Below are positions 21,522 to 54,654 of a stretch of DNA of 64,000 nt, piece after piece. The position numbers were made by a program, and so were the translations under genes. Numbering within the stretch: the first letter of the stretch is position 1; every line of letters begins with the position of its first letter. Below the pieces are notes generated by a model that was not told where the DNA came from, did not search any database, and was given only the letters and a program-made list of their open reading frames with translations. The DNA is from Alphaproteobacteria bacterium (GTDB taxonomy: Bacteria; Pseudomonadota; Alphaproteobacteria; CAAHEQ01; UBA3637): positions 408-64,407 of the forward strand of contig JAZOOQ010000006.1 in the NCBI GenBank assembly GCA_045655105.1. The letters are read 5' to 3'.

Positions 21522-22721
21522 ATGAAAATTAAAACGTTTTTATTCTTTGTTTTAAGTATATTATTTGTTGTGAGCAATGCTTTTGCTACCACGATTTCTG
21601 ACGTGCGTCTTTCCACGTTTTCTAATGGAACGGGAAGAATTGTTGTTGAATCGGCGCAAAAAATTGACCCAAAAATTTTCACACTTGAAAATCCAAAAAG
21701 GTTGGTTTTAGATATTCCGAAAACAAATATATTATCATCTGTTTCAAAAAAAGATTTTAAAACGGGGGCTGTTGTTTCCAAAATTAGATTTGGAAAACCG
21801 CAAAAAGATGTGTCGAGAATTGTGGTTGATTTGGGTGAAAATATTTCAGAAAGCCATTTTACATTACCTCCAGAAAATAATAAAGGAATTTGGCGTTTTG
21901 TTTTAGATTTGAAACCAAGTAATCCTGTAAAAGGAACGGGTTATCAATCAACGGCTGCTGCAAAGGTTTTGTCAGATGCTTCTAAAGTTCAAAAACAAAC
22001 AGACAAACCATCTTTAAAAACACAAAGTGGTTTGTTACCATTTGGCAAATCTAAAAAAGTGGTTGTTTTAGATGCGGGGCACGGAGGTCAAGATCCTGGC
22101 GCTATTTCAAAAAATGGACATTTTGAAAAAGATTTAACGCTTAAAATGGCAAAAGAAACAAAGGCTCTTTTAGAAAAAGCTGGCTATAAAGTTGTTTTAA
22201 CAAGAGATAGAGATATTTTTATCACTCTTCGTGGTCGTGTAAAAAAAGCGCATGAAGCGAAAGCTGATTTGTTTATTTCTATTCATGCGGATAGTGCAAG
22301 AAACACTAAAGCAAGAGGCTTGTCAATTTATACAATTTCTGAAAAAGCATCAGATAAAGAAGCTGCAGCTTTGGCGGAACGCGAAAACAAATCAGATATT
22401 TTACTTGGGATGGATTTAGATGATTATCAACAAGAAGTAAGTTCTGTTTTGATTGATTTGGCAAAGCAAGATACCATGAAAGAATCTCGTGTATATGCAG
22501 ATTTAGTTGTTAAAGAAATGCAAAGAACAGTTCAGTTATTACCAAATGCACATCGTTTTGCTGGATTTGCTGTTTTGAAATCGCCAAATATTCCATCAGT
22601 TTTACTTGAAATGGGGTATATGTCTAATCGCCATGAAGAACGCGAAATGCAAAAAGCGGCATATCGCAAAAAATTAGGTCAGGCATTGGTTCGCGCTGTG
22701 GATGCTTATTTTGGAAGGTAA
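21522..22721 (+). CDS. amiC: N-acetylmuramoyl-L-alanine amidase with AMIN domain (AmiC type)
   Basis: Signal peptide, AMIN-like N-domain (RIVVESAQ ... RLVLDIP), amidase_3 motifs VVLDAGHGGQDPGA, SIHADS and LLEMGYMSN. Confidence 0.9.
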   Translation: MKIKTFLFFVLSILFVVSNAFATTISDVRLSTFSNGTGRIVVESAQKIDPKIFTLENPKRLVLDIPKTNILSSVSKKDFKTGAVVSKIRFGKPQKDVSRIVVDLGENISESHFTLPPENNKGIWRFVLDLKPSNPVKGTGYQSTAAAKVLSDASKVQKQTDKPSLKTQSGLLPFGKSKKVVVLDAGHGGQDPGAISKNGHFEKDLTLKMAKETKALLEKAGYKVVLTRDRDIFITLRGRVKKAHEAKADLFISIHADSARNTKARGLSIYTISEKASDKEAAALAERENKSDILLGMDLDDYQQEVSSVLIDLAKQDTMKESRVYADLVVKEMQRTVQLLPNAHRFAGFAVLKSPNIPSVLLEMGYMSNRHEEREMQKAAYRKKLGQALVRAVDAYFGR

Positions 22722-40187: not shown

Positions 40188-41924
40188 TTATTGAACGCGA
40201 ACAACTGAGCATCCAAATCCACGACGACCCAATCTTTTGCATAATTTATCTGCCAAAGTAATATCTTTAATTGGACCGACGCGTAAGCGGAATAATTCAC
40301 GCATATTGCTGTCTGCTGTTGTATCAACAGAATAATAAGGTTCATAACCGCTTAAAACATCTGCATTCTTATCAAGAATTTTTTCCCAAATTCCTTCAAG
40401 TTCAGTAATATCTGCATGTGTACCAAGTTCAATAGAAATTGTTTCGCTTGTGGCTAAACCGGAATTTCTTTGTGCTGAAATTGGCATTTGACTCATTACA
40501 CCAACAATCCCTGCAGATGCTTTTGGAGAGTTCACAACATTAGCTGGAATTGATTGAATCGGAGCCATGTTTGATGTATATACTGAACTGTTTGGTTGAA
40601 CATATCCCGGCATATAATTTTCAGTATATGTATCATACATTGATTCAACAGGATACATACCGTTTGTTTGTGGCATATATGTGTTTTGTTGATACATATC
40701 CATCATTTGAGGTCTTGGTGCTAATGGACTTTTTGTGATTTGTTTTTCTTCTGAATCAGCACCTAAAGTTGGATCATAAGCCGGAGCTTCTTTACTCATT
40801 ACGCTTGGTCGACCTGTATATGGAGAAACAGTCATATTTTCAGAACCGCTATAATCTGTATATTCAAGACCTGCACTTGGATCTCTTCTAAGTTTTAAAC
40901 AGATAAGTTTTTTACCATTTCTTAAAACCAAATCCCCAATAGCTTCAACAACAATTAAACGGCTATTTGGTCCCGTTGTTCTAAAACCAACAGGAACTTC
41001 TGTTTCTTGAACTAAAAGACTGACAACAGGGCGTTGAGTCATTGTTAAAGCTTTCGGTCCCAAATCAATGTATGTAAAAATATTATCGCGCCATACATTA
41101 TCTGGGGCAATATCCACATCTGATGGATTTGGAATATAAATATCAATATCAAAACGAATGTTTTCTGGATCTACAGGAATGCTTTGCAACCAATTTTTTG
41201 GGCCAGTTGAGGCGGTATTAATACCCAATTGGGGATTTTGACCACCACTTCTGCCAATTGCCCATCCTGGTGCTTTATTGGAGTTTAAAAACCCATTTCC
41301 AACTGCTCTATTTGTTGCACCATTCATACCACCTAAGCGGCCTCCATTTTCAACAGGAGTGTATCGTGGTCCAACTAATACATCAACAACAGATTGAGAA
41401 ATCTTTTCCGCATTATATGTTTCGCTTCTTAAATAGAAAACATATCGGTTACCTGAACGACCAAAAATAATCATATTGCTATCAACACCAATGTATGATG
41501 GGTCAGCATATAAAAGAAGAGAGTTTGGTGCTGCAATTTCACCACCAAAAGATTCTGGAGAACCGATATGAACTTTTTCAATTAACTCCCATGTTGGCAA
41601 GTTAATCAGAGTCATCATTCCTTCTCTTAAACGGATTGGTAAAATAACATCAGGTGACCAAGCATATTTTGAATATCCTGGTTTTGATTGACCTTCCCCT
41701 AAATGAGCCATTGGGTCATTCCATGCTTTTTGTTGCATGCCAAGAGAATGTAAATAATTTGGGTTAACAGATTCGTAATCGCCATTTGTTTGCGCAATAG
41801 CGTCGCTTAAACGTTCACTTTCAGCATCTGTAGGCAACCCCTCTGAATGTGCAACAACAGAAAATAAAACAAAAACAGCAGCTGTTGCCAGCCAACCTTG
41901 TCTGTGAAGTTTGTGTTTGAACAT
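40188..41924 (-). CDS. virB9: VirB9-family protein with Met/Tyr/Pro/Gln-rich linker and C-terminal SPOR domain
   Basis: Signal peptide (AAVFVLFSVVAHS). VirB9-like blocks (RYVFYLRS; NIFTYIDLGP ... PVVSLLV ... LIVVEAIGDLVLRNGKKLICLKLR). C-terminal 83 aa are SPOR-like (FRLRVGPIKDITLADKLCKRLGRRGFGCSVV). ATG 41924 is preceded by GAGGAG. Confidence 0.8.
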   Translation of the reverse strand: MFKHKLHRQGWLATAAVFVLFSVVAHSEGLPTDAESERLSDAIAQTNGDYESVNPNYLHSLGMQQKAWNDPMAHLGEGQSKPGYSKYAWSPDVILPIRLREGMMTLINLPTWELIEKVHIGSPESFGGEIAAPNSLLLYADPSYIGVDSNMIIFGRSGNRYVFYLRSETYNAEKISQSVVDVLVGPRYTPVENGGRLGGMNGATNRAVGNGFLNSNKAPGWAIGRSGGQNPQLGINTASTGPKNWLQSIPVDPENIRFDIDIYIPNPSDVDIAPDNVWRDNIFTYIDLGPKALTMTQRPVVSLLVQETEVPVGFRTTGPNSRLIVVEAIGDLVLRNGKKLICLKLRRDPSAGLEYTDYSGSENMTVSPYTGRPSVMSKEAPAYDPTLGADSEEKQITKSPLAPRPQMMDMYQQNTYMPQTNGMYPVESMYDTYTENYMPGYVQPNSSVYTSNMAPIQSIPANVVNSPKASAGIVGVMSQMPISAQRNSGLATSETISIELGTHADITELEGIWEKILDKNADVLSGYEPYYSVDTTADSNMRELFRLRVGPIKDITLADKLCKRLGRRGFGCSVVRVQ

Positions 41925-42081: not shown

Positions 42082-42780
42082 TTATGAATCAGCTTTTTTT
42101 ATCCCAAGTTGAATAACTGTAAATCCAAGTGGATTTTTTAGTCTTTCTTCCCAAGTTAAACCTTCTCTTGTGGGTCTAAAAGCAACATCCATTGTAACAA
42201 CCCATCTGGATTTTTGAGGTTCACTTGATAAGTGTTTCATTTCTGTAAATTCAACTTCTGTACGCCAAATGTTTTCATTTCTACTTGAGCGATAAGGGTT
42301 AACGACTAAAATTTTAACATTACGGGTCAACCCTTCTTCTTTAGCTTGTTTAATCCAATCTTCTGCATATTCAATAAATTTTGAATAAACGGTGCTTTCG
42401 CTCATCCAGTTAATTTCGCCATCAATCCCAGTGCGTCGTTCAAGTTCTTGAATGTTTGATCCAACGCTAAAATAGGAAAGCAAATACTGTCTTATAAAAG
42501 ATTCAGTCAGTGTTTGCATATTCATTTGGCTGAAGTTTGGGCGAACAACATTAATAACTTGTTCATTCTTATTAAGTGTTGTTAAGAAAAATGGTTGCAC
42601 TCTTACAATAGGCATTAATGAAACAAGAGCGCTAATAAGCATAATTGTTGTTAATGAAGAAACAACTAAAACAAGCGCAAAAGTGCGCGCCATCCAAAGA
42701 TAACGCCTTTCTTTAACGGCTTCTTCGGATAAATCTTGACCTTGTTTCTTTTTAACAGGTATTTGCTCGTTCATTGTCAT
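42082..42780 (-). CDS. virB8: VirB8-family protein (copy b)
   Basis: Short cytoplasmic N-terminus, one TM helix, periplasmic domain ending with the VirB8 signature NPLGFTV. Confidence 0.8.
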   Translation of the reverse strand: MTMNEQIPVKKKQGQDLSEEAVKERRYLWMARTFALVLVVSSLTTIMLISALVSLMPIVRVQPFFLTTLNKNEQVINVVRPNFSQMNMQTLTESFIRQYLLSYFSVGSNIQELERRTGIDGEINWMSESTVYSKFIEYAEDWIKQAKEEGLTRNVKILVVNPYRSSRNENIWRTEVEFTEMKHLSSEPQKSRWVVTMDVAFRPTREGLTWEERLKNPLGFTVIQLGIKKADS

Positions 42781-50209: not shown

Positions 50210-51385
50210 TTAAATTTTCATTTCAACAACACTAAATCTTTTTGCATTTTTGAGCAAACGTTCAGAGAGTTGTTCCATTTTTTCTGCTTCAAGTCGCATT
50301 CTTAATTCTTCATCACTAGGAATAACTTTTTTGTTTGTTATCTTGCATTTCATGAAAAATAAATCCGAATCTGGTGTTTGGATTGGTCCAATAACTTTTT
50401 TTGTTGGAGCATCTTTTAAAAGATCTTTTAATTCGCGTGGTAATTGTTCTGGAGAAATCATACCTGATTTAACGGATTCTTTAATAGCATTTTCTTTTGC
50501 AAAATCTTTGAAAGAATCGCAAGAGTTTAATTTATTAATTTTATCCCCAAAAGCTGCTGTATGGTTTGCACTTAAAGCCATTTGAGAAACTTCCCAAATT
50601 GGAACGGTGTCGGTATGAATAGGGTATTTCCTATCTAAAACAAGTAAAATAAGATAACCGTTTTTAGTTTTTAATGGTGTTGAAAGTTCACCACTTGACA
50701 TGACTCTTAAAGCATCTGTAATTTCTTTTTGATAATGTTTTCCATCAATCCAACCAAGTTCACCACCTTTTGAAGCAGAAGGAGCTATGGAATATTTTTT
50801 TGCAAGCTCAGGAAATGGTTTTCCTTGATGGAGTTCTTTATAGCAATGTTCAGCTTCTTTTTGATCCTTAATCAACATTTCTGCCACATAAAATCCTTCT
50901 GTTTTTAATTCGTTTCGAATGTTATTTTTTAAAGCAGAAATTTCTTTTTCAGAAGGAGGTAATAAAGATTTTTTATTTTGTTGAATAACTTGAAGCCACA
51001 TGAGGTCAGCTTTGATTTGGTTTTTTAAAATATGTAATGGAATTTGATTTTTTTTCAGCATACTTTCCATGCTTCCTTTTTTCATCCCATTTTGGGATTC
51101 TAAATGAAAAATAGCTTCTTCAATTTCTTTTTCAGAAACACTAAATCCTTTTTTTTCTGCTTCAGAAATTTTTATATGATCATTGATTAAAGCATCTAAT
51201 GCTGCTTTTACATATTCTTTTTTTTTCGCTGTGGTGATGGGACTTGAATTTTGAATAGAAATAAGTTTAGCACGAGCCTCTGCGTCAAATGAAGAAATTG
51301 GTTGATCATTAACAGTGGCAACAATTTGCCCCGCATTTGCAGATAAACTTAATAAAATTAAAGCAATAAAAAGAAGTGATCTCAT
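50210..51385 (-). CDS. surA: SurA-like periplasmic chaperone / parvulin PPIase
   Basis: Signal peptide, SurA N-domain, parvulin domain (GGELGWI ... TKNGYLILLV). Conserved position downstream of lptD; ATGA overlap with it. Confidence 0.8.
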   Translation of the reverse strand: MRSLLFIALILLSLSANAGQIVATVNDQPISSFDAEARAKLISIQNSSPITTAKKKEYVKAALDALINDHIKISEAEKKGFSVSEKEIEEAIFHLESQNGMKKGSMESMLKKNQIPLHILKNQIKADLMWLQVIQQNKKSLLPPSEKEISALKNNIRNELKTEGFYVAEMLIKDQKEAEHCYKELHQGKPFPELAKKYSIAPSASKGGELGWIDGKHYQKEITDALRVMSSGELSTPLKTKNGYLILLVLDRKYPIHTDTVPIWEVSQMALSANHTAAFGDKINKLNSCDSFKDFAKENAIKESVKSGMISPEQLPRELKDLLKDAPTKKVIGPIQTPDSDLFFMKCKITNKKVIPSDEELRMRLEAEKMEQLSERLLKNAKRFSVVEMKI

Positions 51386-54300
51386 TCCATTCCCCCTAAG
51401 GTTTTAAGAATAAATTTTACCATAAAAGATGTGTCTCCTTCATAGTCTCTGTCATAAGTGAAAGATTTATCCAATTCAAAAGCAATGATTGTGCAATCAT
51501 TTTCGTATTGAGCAATTAAACCTGATTCAACTGGGCCACGTTGGGATGATTTTTTTTCTAAATTATATCTATAATATCCAGATAAAGACCAGTTTTTTGT
51601 TAATTGAGATGATCCAAAGAATAATATTTCTTCGCGGTTTTTATAATAAGAAAATTCATCTGATTTCGTGTCATCTTTAATTTTGATATAATCGATACCA
51701 ACGCGTAAAGGTGCTTTTCCAACAGTAAAAGTAATTTCATTTTTAACTGGTTTAAAATCATCTTTATTTAACCGAAAACGATAAGCTAATGAGAAGATAT
51801 CAAAATTTGTTTGAAGTCTACCAACATAGTCAGAATAATTTGATTCATATCCTAAAGCTTTTTCCATCACTTCATCTCCAGAGAAGCGATATGATTGACC
51901 GAATAAAAATGATGATGACATATTTTTATTGCCATAAACTGAATATTCAATACCATAATTTGCTCTTGTGCCTGTTTCAACTCGGTCATACCCAATAAAT
52001 CTATTTTCAGAGAATAAGTTGGTATCATCAAAATCAATGTCAAGACTATCGACATTAGGGATTTTATCTTTATTGCCACTAACTGGTGATGAAACAAGCA
52101 TTAAAATTGGAGAAATAACCTGTGTATAATTTTCGCTTGCTTTTGCAAATGGATAACTTATTTTGCTTGAAAATACAGGATAAAATCTGCCAGTTGAATA
52201 ACTATCATCTGTTTTTAAACCGTTAAAAGAATATTTTCCTGTATCAATGCTATAACCATCTATGCGAACACTTGCTTTAGTGTCAATATTAATGCCTAAA
52301 TTTGAGATATAGGGTAGATGTAAACCTTGGGTTACAGAGGCTCTGTTTGATTTAAATCTTTGGCGGTTATTATAAGCAACGCCATTAATTTTTGAAAACG
52401 CATAAAGTCCACTGTTATTTAATGCTTCTGTGTTATACACATAATTCATTGTTGGAATGAAAACAGGGATGGATTTTTGATTAACTCTACCATGTTGGTT
52501 TTGAAAAGAAAGTCCTTTGAAATGGAAATAATTTCTTTCGCCAAATCTTTCAGCTGAAATATTTGATTCCAAGTATTGATCAGATGTATCAACATCTGGC
52601 AATGAGTATCGTCTAAAATATGTATCTGAAGAAACGCGATAATATTGTCCACTTAAACGCCATTTATCTGAAATATCTGCCCTCATATGAGCTTTGATGT
52701 GGCCTTGATTTTTATCATCATTATCTCTTGTTCCACTGGCTTGTAATTTTAAGTATCCACGTGTAAATGTTCCTTCATAATCCATAAATCCTAATGGGTC
52801 ATGACTAGTGGATAGTGTTGGAATAAGAGTTAAGTTTTGATTATCTGCAATATCAACAAAAAATGGGATGTTAATACCTTGTTTCATTTCATTACTATGA
52901 GCAAAACTTGGCGCTAAAAAACCTGTTTTTCTTTTAACGGTAAAATCTGGTATATTTAAATATGGAAAATAAAAAACAGGAACATCTTTAACCTTTAAAA
53001 AAGAATGAGTAAATGACATTTCTTTTTCTGGTTTATTGTGTTTAATTGTTCTAGCTGTTAATTTCCACAGAGGAGATTCTCCTTTGCAAAAAGTGCAAGG
53101 AGTATATGTAGCTTTTTTTAAATAAGTAATATCTCCATTCTCTTTTCTTTTATATCTAGCTGCAGACATATATGATCCTTCATATAAGTCCATTTCAACA
53201 ACGTTACTAACTGCCATTTTAAGAGCAGGAGTCAAAATAGTATCGGCTGTATATGTAACAGTTCCATCTGGTGTTGTTGTTTTAGAGGAGTGCGGGATAA
53301 TAATTTGCCCATTTTTTTTATCGTAAACAAATTTATCTGTTTGGATAATGGTATTGTTTTGTTCAATAACAACGTTGCCTTGAGCGGTAACAGATTCATC
53401 TTGATGATTATAAAAAATTTCATCAGCTTCAAAATTAACAGGTTTTTCTTTTTCAAATTTAACTTGTGGGTCTAATTTAATTTGAGAGTGAGCCGTGTTT
53501 GCTGAGATGCAAAATGTTGCGATTAATAATAATTTGAATGAATTTTTCATGACGTTTTTGATTTGAGGTTTTTGAATGGGTTTCATTGCAAGATAATAAA
53601 CAATCAAAACAGGAACAAAAAGATTTAAAAACATAAGAGGGGCAAACCAAAGATTTTTAGCAGTTAAGTTTTCAAAAGCTAAAGCAAGAGATTGCACTAA
53701 AATAGTTGTTAGAATAATGATATTCATACGACCCATCTGCCCCCGACGATTATAAAATGGTGATAAAATAGCAAACATTGCTAAAAACATAAATGAGATA
53801 TTATAAATTGGTTTTGTTAAGCGTTTTAAAATTTCTGTTTTATATTTACGATATTGAATTTCATTGCCAACATCTTCTTTTGTTGCAGAAAGCAAATAAG
53901 AAAGTGAATAATCTGATTCATCTAATTTTCGTGAGCTATCAGCATTTTTTTTGTCACTAAAAAACATTTTATATTTATCAAAATTTAAAATTGAAAACTT
54001 TTTTGTTTCAGGATTATATTCTTGTCTACTCCCATTTTGAAATACAAGATCAAATCCTTCATCATTTTGGAAAATAAATCCTTTTTCAGCAATTAAAACA
54101 GAAATATTTTTTGGATTTTTGGCATCATATGCTAAAACACCTTTAACAGAACCATCTTCAGATCTTTCTTTTACATAAAGAGTTAAGCGATTATTTAACG
54201 TATTAAATTGACCTTCTTGAAGCAATAAATGGGATAAATCATTTCTTACTCGCCATTTAAGTTCACCAAGTTCTCTATGAGAAGCAGGAATGATGTTGAG

Positions 54301-54654
54301 TGTTAATAAATAACCAATAATGGTGAGTGCAACGGCTAAAATAAATGCTGGTTTCATAATGCTTTTATTAGACATGCCAATTGCTTGCATGACCATAACT
54401 TCTTTATCCGCTTGCATTCTAGAAAAAATAAATAAAATCACAGCAAATAAGGCAATAGGTGATAAAATTTGGATAAAGTTAGGTAAAACCAACAATGTCA
54501 TTTCTAAAAACATGCTAACAGGAATACCTTTTGTAACAATCATATCAATCATGCGCAACGATTGTGTAAGCCACACAAGTGTTGTCATTCCTAATAAAAT
54601 CAATAAAAAGCTGATGACCAGCTGTTTTAAAATATATGATGTTAAAATCTTCAT
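51382..54654 (-). CDS. lptD: Single 1,090-codon frame joining an LptF/LptG-family permease (about aa 1-368) to LptD (from internal Met at nt 53550)
   Basis: The N-terminus (MKILTSYILKQLVISFLL ...) has six hydrophobic helices of the YjgP/YjgQ type. An internal MKNSFKLLLIATFCISANTAHS signal peptide follows, then an OstA N-domain (FEADEIFYNHQDESVTAQGNVVI) and the LptD beta-barrel. There is no stop codon between the parts. Confidence 0.75.
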   Translation of the reverse strand: MKILTSYILKQLVISFLLILLGMTTLVWLTQSLRMIDMIVTKGIPVSMFLEMTLLVLPNFIQILSPIALFAVILFIFSRMQADKEVMVMQAIGMSNKSIMKPAFILAVALTIIGYLLTLNIIPASHRELGELKWRVRNDLSHLLLQEGQFNTLNNRLTLYVKERSEDGSVKGVLAYDAKNPKNISVLIAEKGFIFQNDEGFDLVFQNGSRQEYNPETKKFSILNFDKYKMFFSDKKNADSSRKLDESDYSLSYLLSATKEDVGNEIQYRKYKTEILKRLTKPIYNISFMFLAMFAILSPFYNRRGQMGRMNIIILTTILVQSLALAFENLTAKNLWFAPLMFLNLFVPVLIVYYLAMKPIQKPQIKNVMKNSFKLLLIATFCISANTAHSQIKLDPQVKFEKEKPVNFEADEIFYNHQDESVTAQGNVVIEQNNTIIQTDKFVYDKKNGQIIIPHSSKTTTPDGTVTYTADTILTPALKMAVSNVVEMDLYEGSYMSAARYKRKENGDITYLKKATYTPCTFCKGESPLWKLTARTIKHNKPEKEMSFTHSFLKVKDVPVFYFPYLNIPDFTVKRKTGFLAPSFAHSNEMKQGINIPFFVDIADNQNLTLIPTLSTSHDPLGFMDYEGTFTRGYLKLQASGTRDNDDKNQGHIKAHMRADISDKWRLSGQYYRVSSDTYFRRYSLPDVDTSDQYLESNISAERFGERNYFHFKGLSFQNQHGRVNQKSIPVFIPTMNYVYNTEALNNSGLYAFSKINGVAYNNRQRFKSNRASVTQGLHLPYISNLGINIDTKASVRIDGYSIDTGKYSFNGLKTDDSYSTGRFYPVFSSKISYPFAKASENYTQVISPILMLVSSPVSGNKDKIPNVDSLDIDFDDTNLFSENRFIGYDRVETGTRANYGIEYSVYGNKNMSSSFLFGQSYRFSGDEVMEKALGYESNYSDYVGRLQTNFDIFSLAYRFRLNKDDFKPVKNEITFTVGKAPLRVGIDYIKIKDDTKSDEFSYYKNREEILFFGSSQLTKNWSLSGYYRYNLEKKSSQRGPVESGLIAQYENDCTIIAFELDKSFTYDRDYEGDTSFMVKFILKTLGGME

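Follow-up and report, generated by a model that had tools for sequence, protein, structure and literature searches.

We analysed a 64,000-nucleotide stretch of the genome of an uncultured gut alphaproteobacterium (assembly GCA_045655105.1, contig JAZOOQ010000006.1, positions 408 to 64,407; hereafter the window), focusing on its VirB9, a subunit of the outer-membrane core complex of a VirB-type T4SS (type IV secretion system). Its open reading frame (ORF) occupies 40188..41924 on the minus strand and encodes 578 amino acids. Profile and structure comparisons show that the protein consists, in order, of a signal peptide, the VirB9 core, a disordered linker and a C-terminal domain with the SPOR fold. 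With moderate confidence, we read this tail as tethering the T4SS outer core to peptidoglycan in a multivalent fashion and with low affinity. The ATG start lies at 41924 with a Shine-Dalgarno sequence (GAGGAG) 7 nt upstream, and the starting Met is common to the homologues. A longer frame from a TTG codon (601 aa) is not needed. The parts of the protein, with the evidence for each, are as follows (pLDDT, predicted local distance difference test).

41844..41924, minus strand: Sec signal peptide, residues 1–27, MFKHKLHRQGWLATAAVFVLFSVVAHS; hydrophobic core and AHS/EG cleavage-type site, from sequence
40851..41747, minus strand: VirB9 core, residues 60–358, N- and C-terminal β-sandwich domains predicted by homology; Pfam CagX and homologue model
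41190..41324, minus strand: Gly/Asn-rich variable insertion between the VirB9 domains, residues 201–245; length and identity across species
40446..40850, minus strand: disordered linker rich in Met, Tyr, Pro, Gln and Ser, residues 359–493 (135 aa); pLDDT below 50 and composition
40485..40556, minus strand: conserved short linker motif, residues 457–480, QSIPANVVNSPKASAGIVGVMSQM; near-invariant residues and a weak predicted helix
40191..40445, minus strand: C-terminal SPOR-fold domain, residues 494–578 (85 aa); Pfam SPOR, AlphaFold2 (AF2) and Foldseek

The SPOR-fold tail and the VirB9 core

The tail belongs to the SPOR fold and to the Pfam family of that name. Pfam SPOR (PF05036) matches residues 525–576 at 29.1 bits against a cut-off of 21; the genome scan gives 33.1 bits. 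For a relative from another family (G002), the match to this model spans positions 4–76 and scores 27.6 bits. The AF2 model built on the family alignment has a pLDDT of 76–88 over residues 491–578, which form a β-α-β-β-α-β arrangement (strand 495–503, helix 506–524, strands 529–534 and 544–552, helix 555–567 and strand 573–577). When the tail is compared with the PDB in Foldseek, the SPOR domain of CwlC ranks first (1x60; E value 2.6e-4, template-modelling (TM) score 0.79, root-mean-square deviation 2.4 Å) and that of RlpA with denuded glycan second (6i09; TM score 0.73). The DedD SPOR domain follows at rank 7, while other ferredoxin-like folds reach TM scores of only 0.3–0.4. Among PDB sequences, neither the tail by itself nor the family profile found a SPOR or VirB9 entry; the divergence of the family is too great for this, and structures had to be compared instead.

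A hidden Markov model (HMM) of the VirB9 tails can be aligned from end to end with the SPOR domain of an FtsN-like protein encoded by the same genome (37.8 bits). The two share the Trp of helix 1, the F/Y-R-L-x-V-G strand and a pair of cysteines, one in helix 2 and one in strand 4. The tail, whose nearest relative in sequence is this domain, probably derives from the alphaproteobacterial SPOR lineage that the FtsN-like protein may represent. The protein itself is bitopic, encoded by a 423-aa frame (G000:C43) with its SPOR domain at G000:C43:29721-29957, and is one of three other SPOR proteins in the genome, alongside a PBP5/DacC-type carboxypeptidase with a SPOR domain and RlpA. The same helix 2/strand 4 Cys pair as in the VirB9 tail is present in both the PBP5/DacC-type (G000:C47:2329-2535) and the FtsN-like SPOR domains.

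The core is that of a VirB9. Pfam CagX/VirB9 (PF03524) matches residues 85–343 at 46.7 bits (cut-off 34.2; 48.8 bits in the genome scan), covering model positions 4–195 of 198. The VirB9 equivalog model of NCBIfam, TIGR02781, gives 29.4 bits against a cut-off of 217.7; judged by these scores, the window protein falls in a divergent subfamily and is no equivalog of the Agrobacterium-type VirB9. Its core fold was assigned by homology, via a more diverse alignment headed by a Microvirga homologue (P0164, 38% identical). The AF2 model of P0164 consists of two β-sandwiches, a disordered linker and a confident β-α-β-β-α-β tail, and the best Foldseek matches of its core are TrwF/VirB9, Xanthomonas citri VirB9, TraO and CagX; the entries matched include 8rt6_B, 6gyb_B, 3jqo_B and 2ofq.

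Between core and tail, the linker contains 8.9% Met, compared with 1.9% elsewhere in the protein, and is also enriched in Pro, Gln, Ser and Tyr. Its low-complexity stretch (PRPQMM...QPNSS) spans residues 403–447, nt 40584–40718. In the linker motif QSIPANVVNSPKASAGIVGVMSQM, P460, V463 and I473 hardly vary, and the prediction shows a weak helix over residues 461–477; the motif may be a docking peptide. An earlier note on this DNA had described a protein about twice the usual VirB9 length, with a Met/Tyr/Pro/Gln-rich linker at about 40545–40725 and a SPOR-like domain in its last 83 aa. The length agrees with the 248 positions of TIGR02781, the linker position is close to that of the low-complexity stretch, and the SPOR assignment is borne out by the Pfam score, the AF2 fold and the Foldseek matches to CwlC and RlpA. 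The check it proposed, hmmscan with the Pfam SPOR and CagX models, places both above their curated cut-offs.

Conservation of the fusion and its plasmid-borne relatives

A word-indexed search returned 1,365 homologues, the best 120 of which are all 510–617 aa long and nearly all align with the query from end to end; the named ones among these 120 bear no label more specific than 'TrbG/VirB9 family ... [Alphaproteobacteria bacterium]'. Scanning genomes that each represent a species yielded 123 relatives. Nearly all of the best 80 come from gut, rumen or faecal metagenome-assembled genomes (MAGs), with sheep, yak, deer, rabbit, horse and humans among the hosts. Three contigs titled 'uncultured Lactobacillales' or 'Holdemanella biformis' (L026, L052 and L066) carry the alphaproteobacterial VirB9 and are probably mis-binned or mislabelled MAG contigs.

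In at least 77 of the best 80 independent species-level assemblies the frame is continuous, running through the FRLRxG motif of the tail to the stop codon; of the other three, one meets a contig end, one is masked there and one has a variant sequence. An assembly artefact is therefore excluded, and with it the concern raised earlier that the extra region might be a separate downstream ORF. Conservation differs sharply between regions. Mean identity to the window protein over 78 species is 82% for the N-terminal and 80% for the C-terminal VirB9 domain, 63% for the tail and 14% for the linker (the part covering residues 359–455, which varies from 34 to 121 aa). By the difference between the two, the tail is under purifying selection and the linker serves as a spacer. 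The Gly/Asn-rich insertion within the core is 25–52 aa long with a mean identity of 38%, and the corresponding segment of the homologue model is disordered.

The tail extends well beyond the gut genomes. An exhaustive phmmer search against 1.84 billion cluster representatives gave 566 matches. Among the 89 listed representatives of at least 380 aa, 22 carry the tail as judged by HMM, and another 25 have at their C terminus a more divergent domain, ~85 aa long, that shares the C-x(8-12)-C pair. hhalign links the HMM-detected and divergent tails with a probability of 95.4% (E value 1.8e-8), and it is on this match, the common topology and the Cys pair that homology of the divergent tails rests. 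Foldseek with the Microvirga model gave no independent SPOR match for the tail, its list being swamped by VirB9 and immunoglobulin-like matches. In a maximum-likelihood tree of the VirB9 core alone (107 rows), all 46 tail-bearing rows fall in one 55-row clade, supported at 96 by the Shimodaira–Hasegawa-like approximate likelihood ratio test (SH-aLRT); none of the 48 rows on the opposite side has a tail. Of the few members of the clade that lack one, most are fragments or look frameshifted. A single gain of the tail followed by retention is the simplest history that this quick tree, with its single support measure, would indicate.

Members of the subfamily are found in cultured bacteria. Microvirga species carry such a VirB9 (WP_262266973.1 and relatives), and on the Microvirga plasmid pMVF16-3 (731 kb) its gene sits in a full locus of MobA/MobL, virB2–virB11 and virD4. 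Plasmid p1 of Sphingosinicella sp. BN140058, where the locus is laid out in the same way, encodes a VirB9 of 430 aa whose tail scores 57 bits against the clade HMM. Pfam SPOR fails to detect the tails of either plasmid, and for this reason annotation does not reveal the architecture. The VirB9 of an Azospirillum plasmid, from the sister group, has no tail. VirB10 is also enlarged in the plasmid members, to 590 aa (L088 13665-15437) and 548 aa (L090 10211-11857), far less than the 2,200 aa of the window VirB10. We considered whether the tail is tied to a giant VirB10 and rejected this, since the plasmid members combine it with a VirB10 of 548–590 aa. SPOR-tailed VirB9 thus marks an old subfamily, which spans conjugative plasmids of cultured bacteria and the chromosomal T4SSs of gut alphaproteobacteria. 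What had first been noticed as a fusion in one protein is therefore real, but no peculiarity of that protein.

Glycan-contact residues and the role of the tail

Recognition of glycan by RlpA involves a highly conserved Gln on strand 1 (Q270; Q251 in FtsN) that contacts N-acetylmuramic acid (MurNAc) and N-acetylglucosamine, an aromatic residue four positions on, and a basic patch (R302, R309 and R311) that binds the lactyl carboxylate of MurNAc (PMC6895207). The patch is retained in the VirB9 tail. Arg546 and Arg548 form its Arg-x-Arg on strand 3, corresponding by motif to R309 and R311 of RlpA. Arg546 is kept in 77 of 78 species, and Arg548 and Arg/Lys576 in all 78; Cys562 and Cys572 are likewise invariant. 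Strand 1 of the tail reads I-E-L-G-T-H, with Glu499 aligned to the Gln of the FtsN-like SPOR domain ('leLgs' and 'VQLFAS', respectively). All three other SPOR domains of the genome keep the canonical Gln (VQLFAS and IQVGAF among them).

T4SS core complexes hold about 14–16 copies of VirB9, as in the R388, pKM101 and Cag structures. Given such a stoichiometry, a tether would work as follows. VirB9 would be exported by the Sec pathway and its β-sandwiches would build the outer-membrane core complex together with VirB7 and VirB10, as in other T4SSs. From the end of the core, the disordered tether of ~135 residues would hang into the periplasm, reaching peptidoglycan from the O-layer. The SPOR-fold domain, presumably stabilized by its disulfide, would then contact glycan strands through Glu499, Arg546 and Arg548 on the exposed face of its sheet. 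Each contact may be weak, but summed over 14–16 copies they would yield a firm yet exchangeable anchor to the sacculus. The exchange of Gln for Glu would probably lower the affinity of each domain for denuded glycan, giving a general, dynamic tether that emits no strong septal signal. The periplasmic location of the tail, peptidoglycan as its ligand and multivalent anchoring are what we infer. In the standard architecture of SPOR proteins, a disordered linker leads to a SPOR domain at the C terminus (PMC6895207). Moreover, the genome encodes an AmiC-type amidase and three other SPOR proteins, so the organism makes and uses SPOR ligands, which we count in favour of a tether.

Several observations weigh against this reading. 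The Pfam SPOR alignment of the window tail is confined to the second half of the model (positions 25/26–76), and an AF2 model of the whole window VirB9, built from 26 close homologues, has a pLDDT below 50 in the core. Parts of the C-terminal domain of VirB9/TraO have been reported to be surface-exposed, so a periplasmic location of the tail is assumed. Further points concern the glycan-contact residues. Position 499 is Glu in 78 of 78 species, where a classical SPOR domain has Gln. Of the 43 tails that the clade HMM can detect, 41 carry Glu or Asp here, with Gln in one and Val in another; as a control, 30 non-VirB9 SPOR domains from 13 alphaproteobacterial genomes have Gln in 28 cases and Glu in none. 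The position of the aromatic (HMM position 12) varies among H, N, S, D and G. Finally, the Q251E mutation of FtsN cuts denuded-glycan binding and septal localization about two-fold (bioRxiv 10.1101/2024.05.13.594014). The single HMM-detectable tail with Gln belongs to a 493-aa representative (P0128) and may reflect either natural reversion or an ancestral state that was kept; it would serve well for comparison.

Glu499 and the FtsN Q251E result together mean that septal binding of denuded glycan cannot be carried over unchanged to the VirB9 tail. The earlier note had suggested that the domain tethers the machine to peptidoglycan or biases it to septal or polar sites. The SPOR fold and the basic patch agree with tethering, whereas the loss of Gln and of the aromatic, and the weaker binding of FtsN Q251E, speak against septal recognition of denuded glycan; septal targeting by the VirB9 tail is unproven. 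From its residues, the tail is probably a weak or non-standard wall anchor.

A tail that behaves as a classical SPOR domain, binding the denuded septal glycan made by amidases and recruiting or retaining the T4SS at division sites and new poles, is on balance unlikely, but it is the alternative that survives best. The fold, a Pfam score above threshold and the retained basic patch are all expected of such a domain, and an AmiC-type amidase is present in the genome. The Q251E mutation only halves septal localization of FtsN, so that 14–16 copies could still bias the machine to the septum. With no VirB1 in the locus, assembly at the remodelled septal wall would make sense, and the arrangement would resemble the AMIN domains of PilQ, which place type IVa pili. 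Against all this stands the Glu, present without exception in 78 of 78 species while Gln is retained by all the genome's housekeeping SPOR domains. Such fixation argues for selection away from the classical specificity.

A second alternative is a switched specificity. In this case Glu or Asp, together with Arg-x-Arg, would read another mark on the wall, such as de-N-acetylated or otherwise modified glycan or chain ends, and so position or license the T4SS. That an acidic residue has become fixed in place of Gln, even between clades of the subfamily that lie far apart (41 of 43), would fit. Canonical SPOR domains cannot bind N-deacetylated glycan, since the hydrogen bond between Gln and the N-acetyl group is lost (PMC6895207), and deacetylases of denuded strands and of anhydroMurNAc exist (PMC12440217, PMC10838918). 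The Dot/Icm system of Legionella is reportedly controlled by peptidoglycan deacetylation, according to work that PMC10838918 cites. De-N-acetylated glycan would offer an amine to Glu. However, no SddA/YibQ-type (PF04748) or NodB-type (PF01522) deacetylase was detectable in this 97%-complete genome, leaving that version unsupported here, and sequence alone yields no ligand. Switched specificity therefore seems to us quite improbable. Somewhat less doubtful, if still well short of likely, is the broader proposal that VirB9 tails form a distinct 'acidic' SPOR-like class, which would read a wall feature other than ordinary denuded glycan. One old VirB9 subfamily, found on conjugative plasmids of soil Alphaproteobacteria and in the chromosomal T4SS of gut Alphaproteobacteria, would use it to place and fasten a machine that has no dedicated VirB1 transglycosylase.

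It is more improbable again that the tail is a protein–protein module that does not bind the wall, forming a ring with itself or docking onto the giant VirB10 or the VirB5-like proteins. Glycan-independent self-interaction between SPOR domains has been proposed for FtsN (bioRxiv 10.1101/2024.05.13.594014), and helix 1 of the tail has invariant residues (L509, E510, W513 and N520), and the glycan-contacting Gln is lost. Yet several of these helix residues are common to the FtsN-like SPOR domain of the genome and are probably core residues, the invariant Arg-x-Arg lies on the sheet face as a glycan-binding patch, and the plasmid systems have the tail with a VirB10 of 548–590 aa, which unties it from a giant partner. 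An artefact, be it an error of sequencing or assembly that merged two genes or a Pfam match arising by chance, has a negligible chance of being correct: nothing was found to support it, and it is already refuted by the unbroken frame, which at least 77 of 80 independent assemblies share with closed plasmids from cultured bacteria, by the Pfam SPOR score above cut-off and by the agreement of the structural matches.

Operon setting, known systems and significance

The gene for the SPOR-tailed VirB9 lies in a minus-strand operon that encodes, in order, six secreted helical proteins, a VirB8-like protein, VirB8, VirB9, VirB10 and VirB11. The genes around it are as follows.

42082..42780, minus strand: VirB8, upstream neighbour; Pfam VirB8, 52.8 bits
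33530..40132, minus strand: VirB10, 2,200 aa with β-flower repeats, downstream neighbour; Pfam TrbI 115 bits, Bflower_2 212 bits
32526..33515, minus strand: VirB11 ATPase, last gene of the operon; Pfam T2SSE, 68 bits

The setting is chromosomal, among folD, surA, lptFG-lptD and xerD-like genes, in a genome assembly of 1.58 Mb that is 97% complete with roughly 32% G+C; the VirB4 of the same genome is on another contig. At 51382–54654 (minus strand) an LptF/LptG permease and a complete LptD are encoded together in one frame of 1,090 aa, as judged by Pfam. The only AmiC-type amidase of the genome is encoded at 21522–22721 on the plus strand (Pfam Amidase_3, 172.7 bits). No SLT/VirB1 domain was detectable in the window operon or in the Microvirga and Sphingosinicella plasmid loci, and the single SLT protein of the genome is encoded elsewhere. 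Absence of a VirB1-type lytic transglycosylase from three loci, a small sample and hence weak evidence, is in keeping with a machine dependent on its interaction with the wall and on remodelling of that wall by housekeeping enzymes.

Canonical VirB9 proteins (VirB9/TrbG, TraO of pKM101, TrwF of R388 and X. citri VirB9) resemble the window VirB9 in their signal peptide, their position between virB8 and virB10 and, to judge by the P0164 model, their two β-sandwiches. The window protein is about twice as long and differs by its Gly/Asn insertion, its 135-aa linker and its SPOR-fold tail. The SPOR domains of FtsN, DamX, DedD and RlpA of Proteobacteria and of CwlC of Bacillus subtilis share with this tail the ribonucleoprotein (RNP)-type fold, a place after a disordered linker and the Arg-x-Arg on strand 3. 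In the VirB9 tail, by contrast, Glu replaces Gln, the aromatic is not kept, the Cys pair (helix 2–strand 4) occupies other positions than the FtsN disulfide (C252, which adjoins the Gln, and C312), and the domain is attached to a secretion subunit instead of a division protein or wall enzyme. The CagX protein of the Helicobacter pylori Cag T4SS is a VirB9 homologue enlarged by lineage-specific additions that works beside a giant VirB10 (CagY), as in the window; on a comparison that was not detailed, its additions do not include a SPOR domain tethered at the C terminus.

Wall-binding modules on parts of outer-membrane machines are found in PilQ (AMIN domains), in GspA and GspB of T2SSs (type II secretion systems) and in the OmpA-like DotK of the Dot/Icm core. 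The principle of wall anchoring is itself already known. The AMIN domains of the PilQ secretin, the GspB/OutB and GspA-type anchors of T2SS secretins and DotK follow the same wall-fixing logic with other folds, and none is a SPOR domain on VirB9. The earlier note was not aware of VirB9–SPOR fusions having been described, and our literature search likewise found no description of VirB9 with a SPOR domain or with a wall-binding domain of any kind. In a 2025 review of the diversity of T4SSs, neither SPOR nor a wall-binding core subunit comes up, and peptidoglycan appears only where hydrolases and Gram-positive systems are treated.

Discussion of how the outer-membrane complex of VirB-type T4SSs relates to peptidoglycan has largely centred on hydrolases of the VirB1 type. 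A tethered domain of a wall-binding type that is part of a core subunit, and is conserved across an entire VirB9 subfamily, would constitute a direct structural link between channel and sacculus. The annotation 'TrbG/VirB9 family protein' hides this tail, and Pfam misses it in most of the subfamily. The cultured, plasmid-borne members in Microvirga and Sphingosinicella make the idea testable by ordinary genetics, and the naturally fixed exchange of Gln for Glu offers a ready-made probe of the ligand specificity of SPOR domains.

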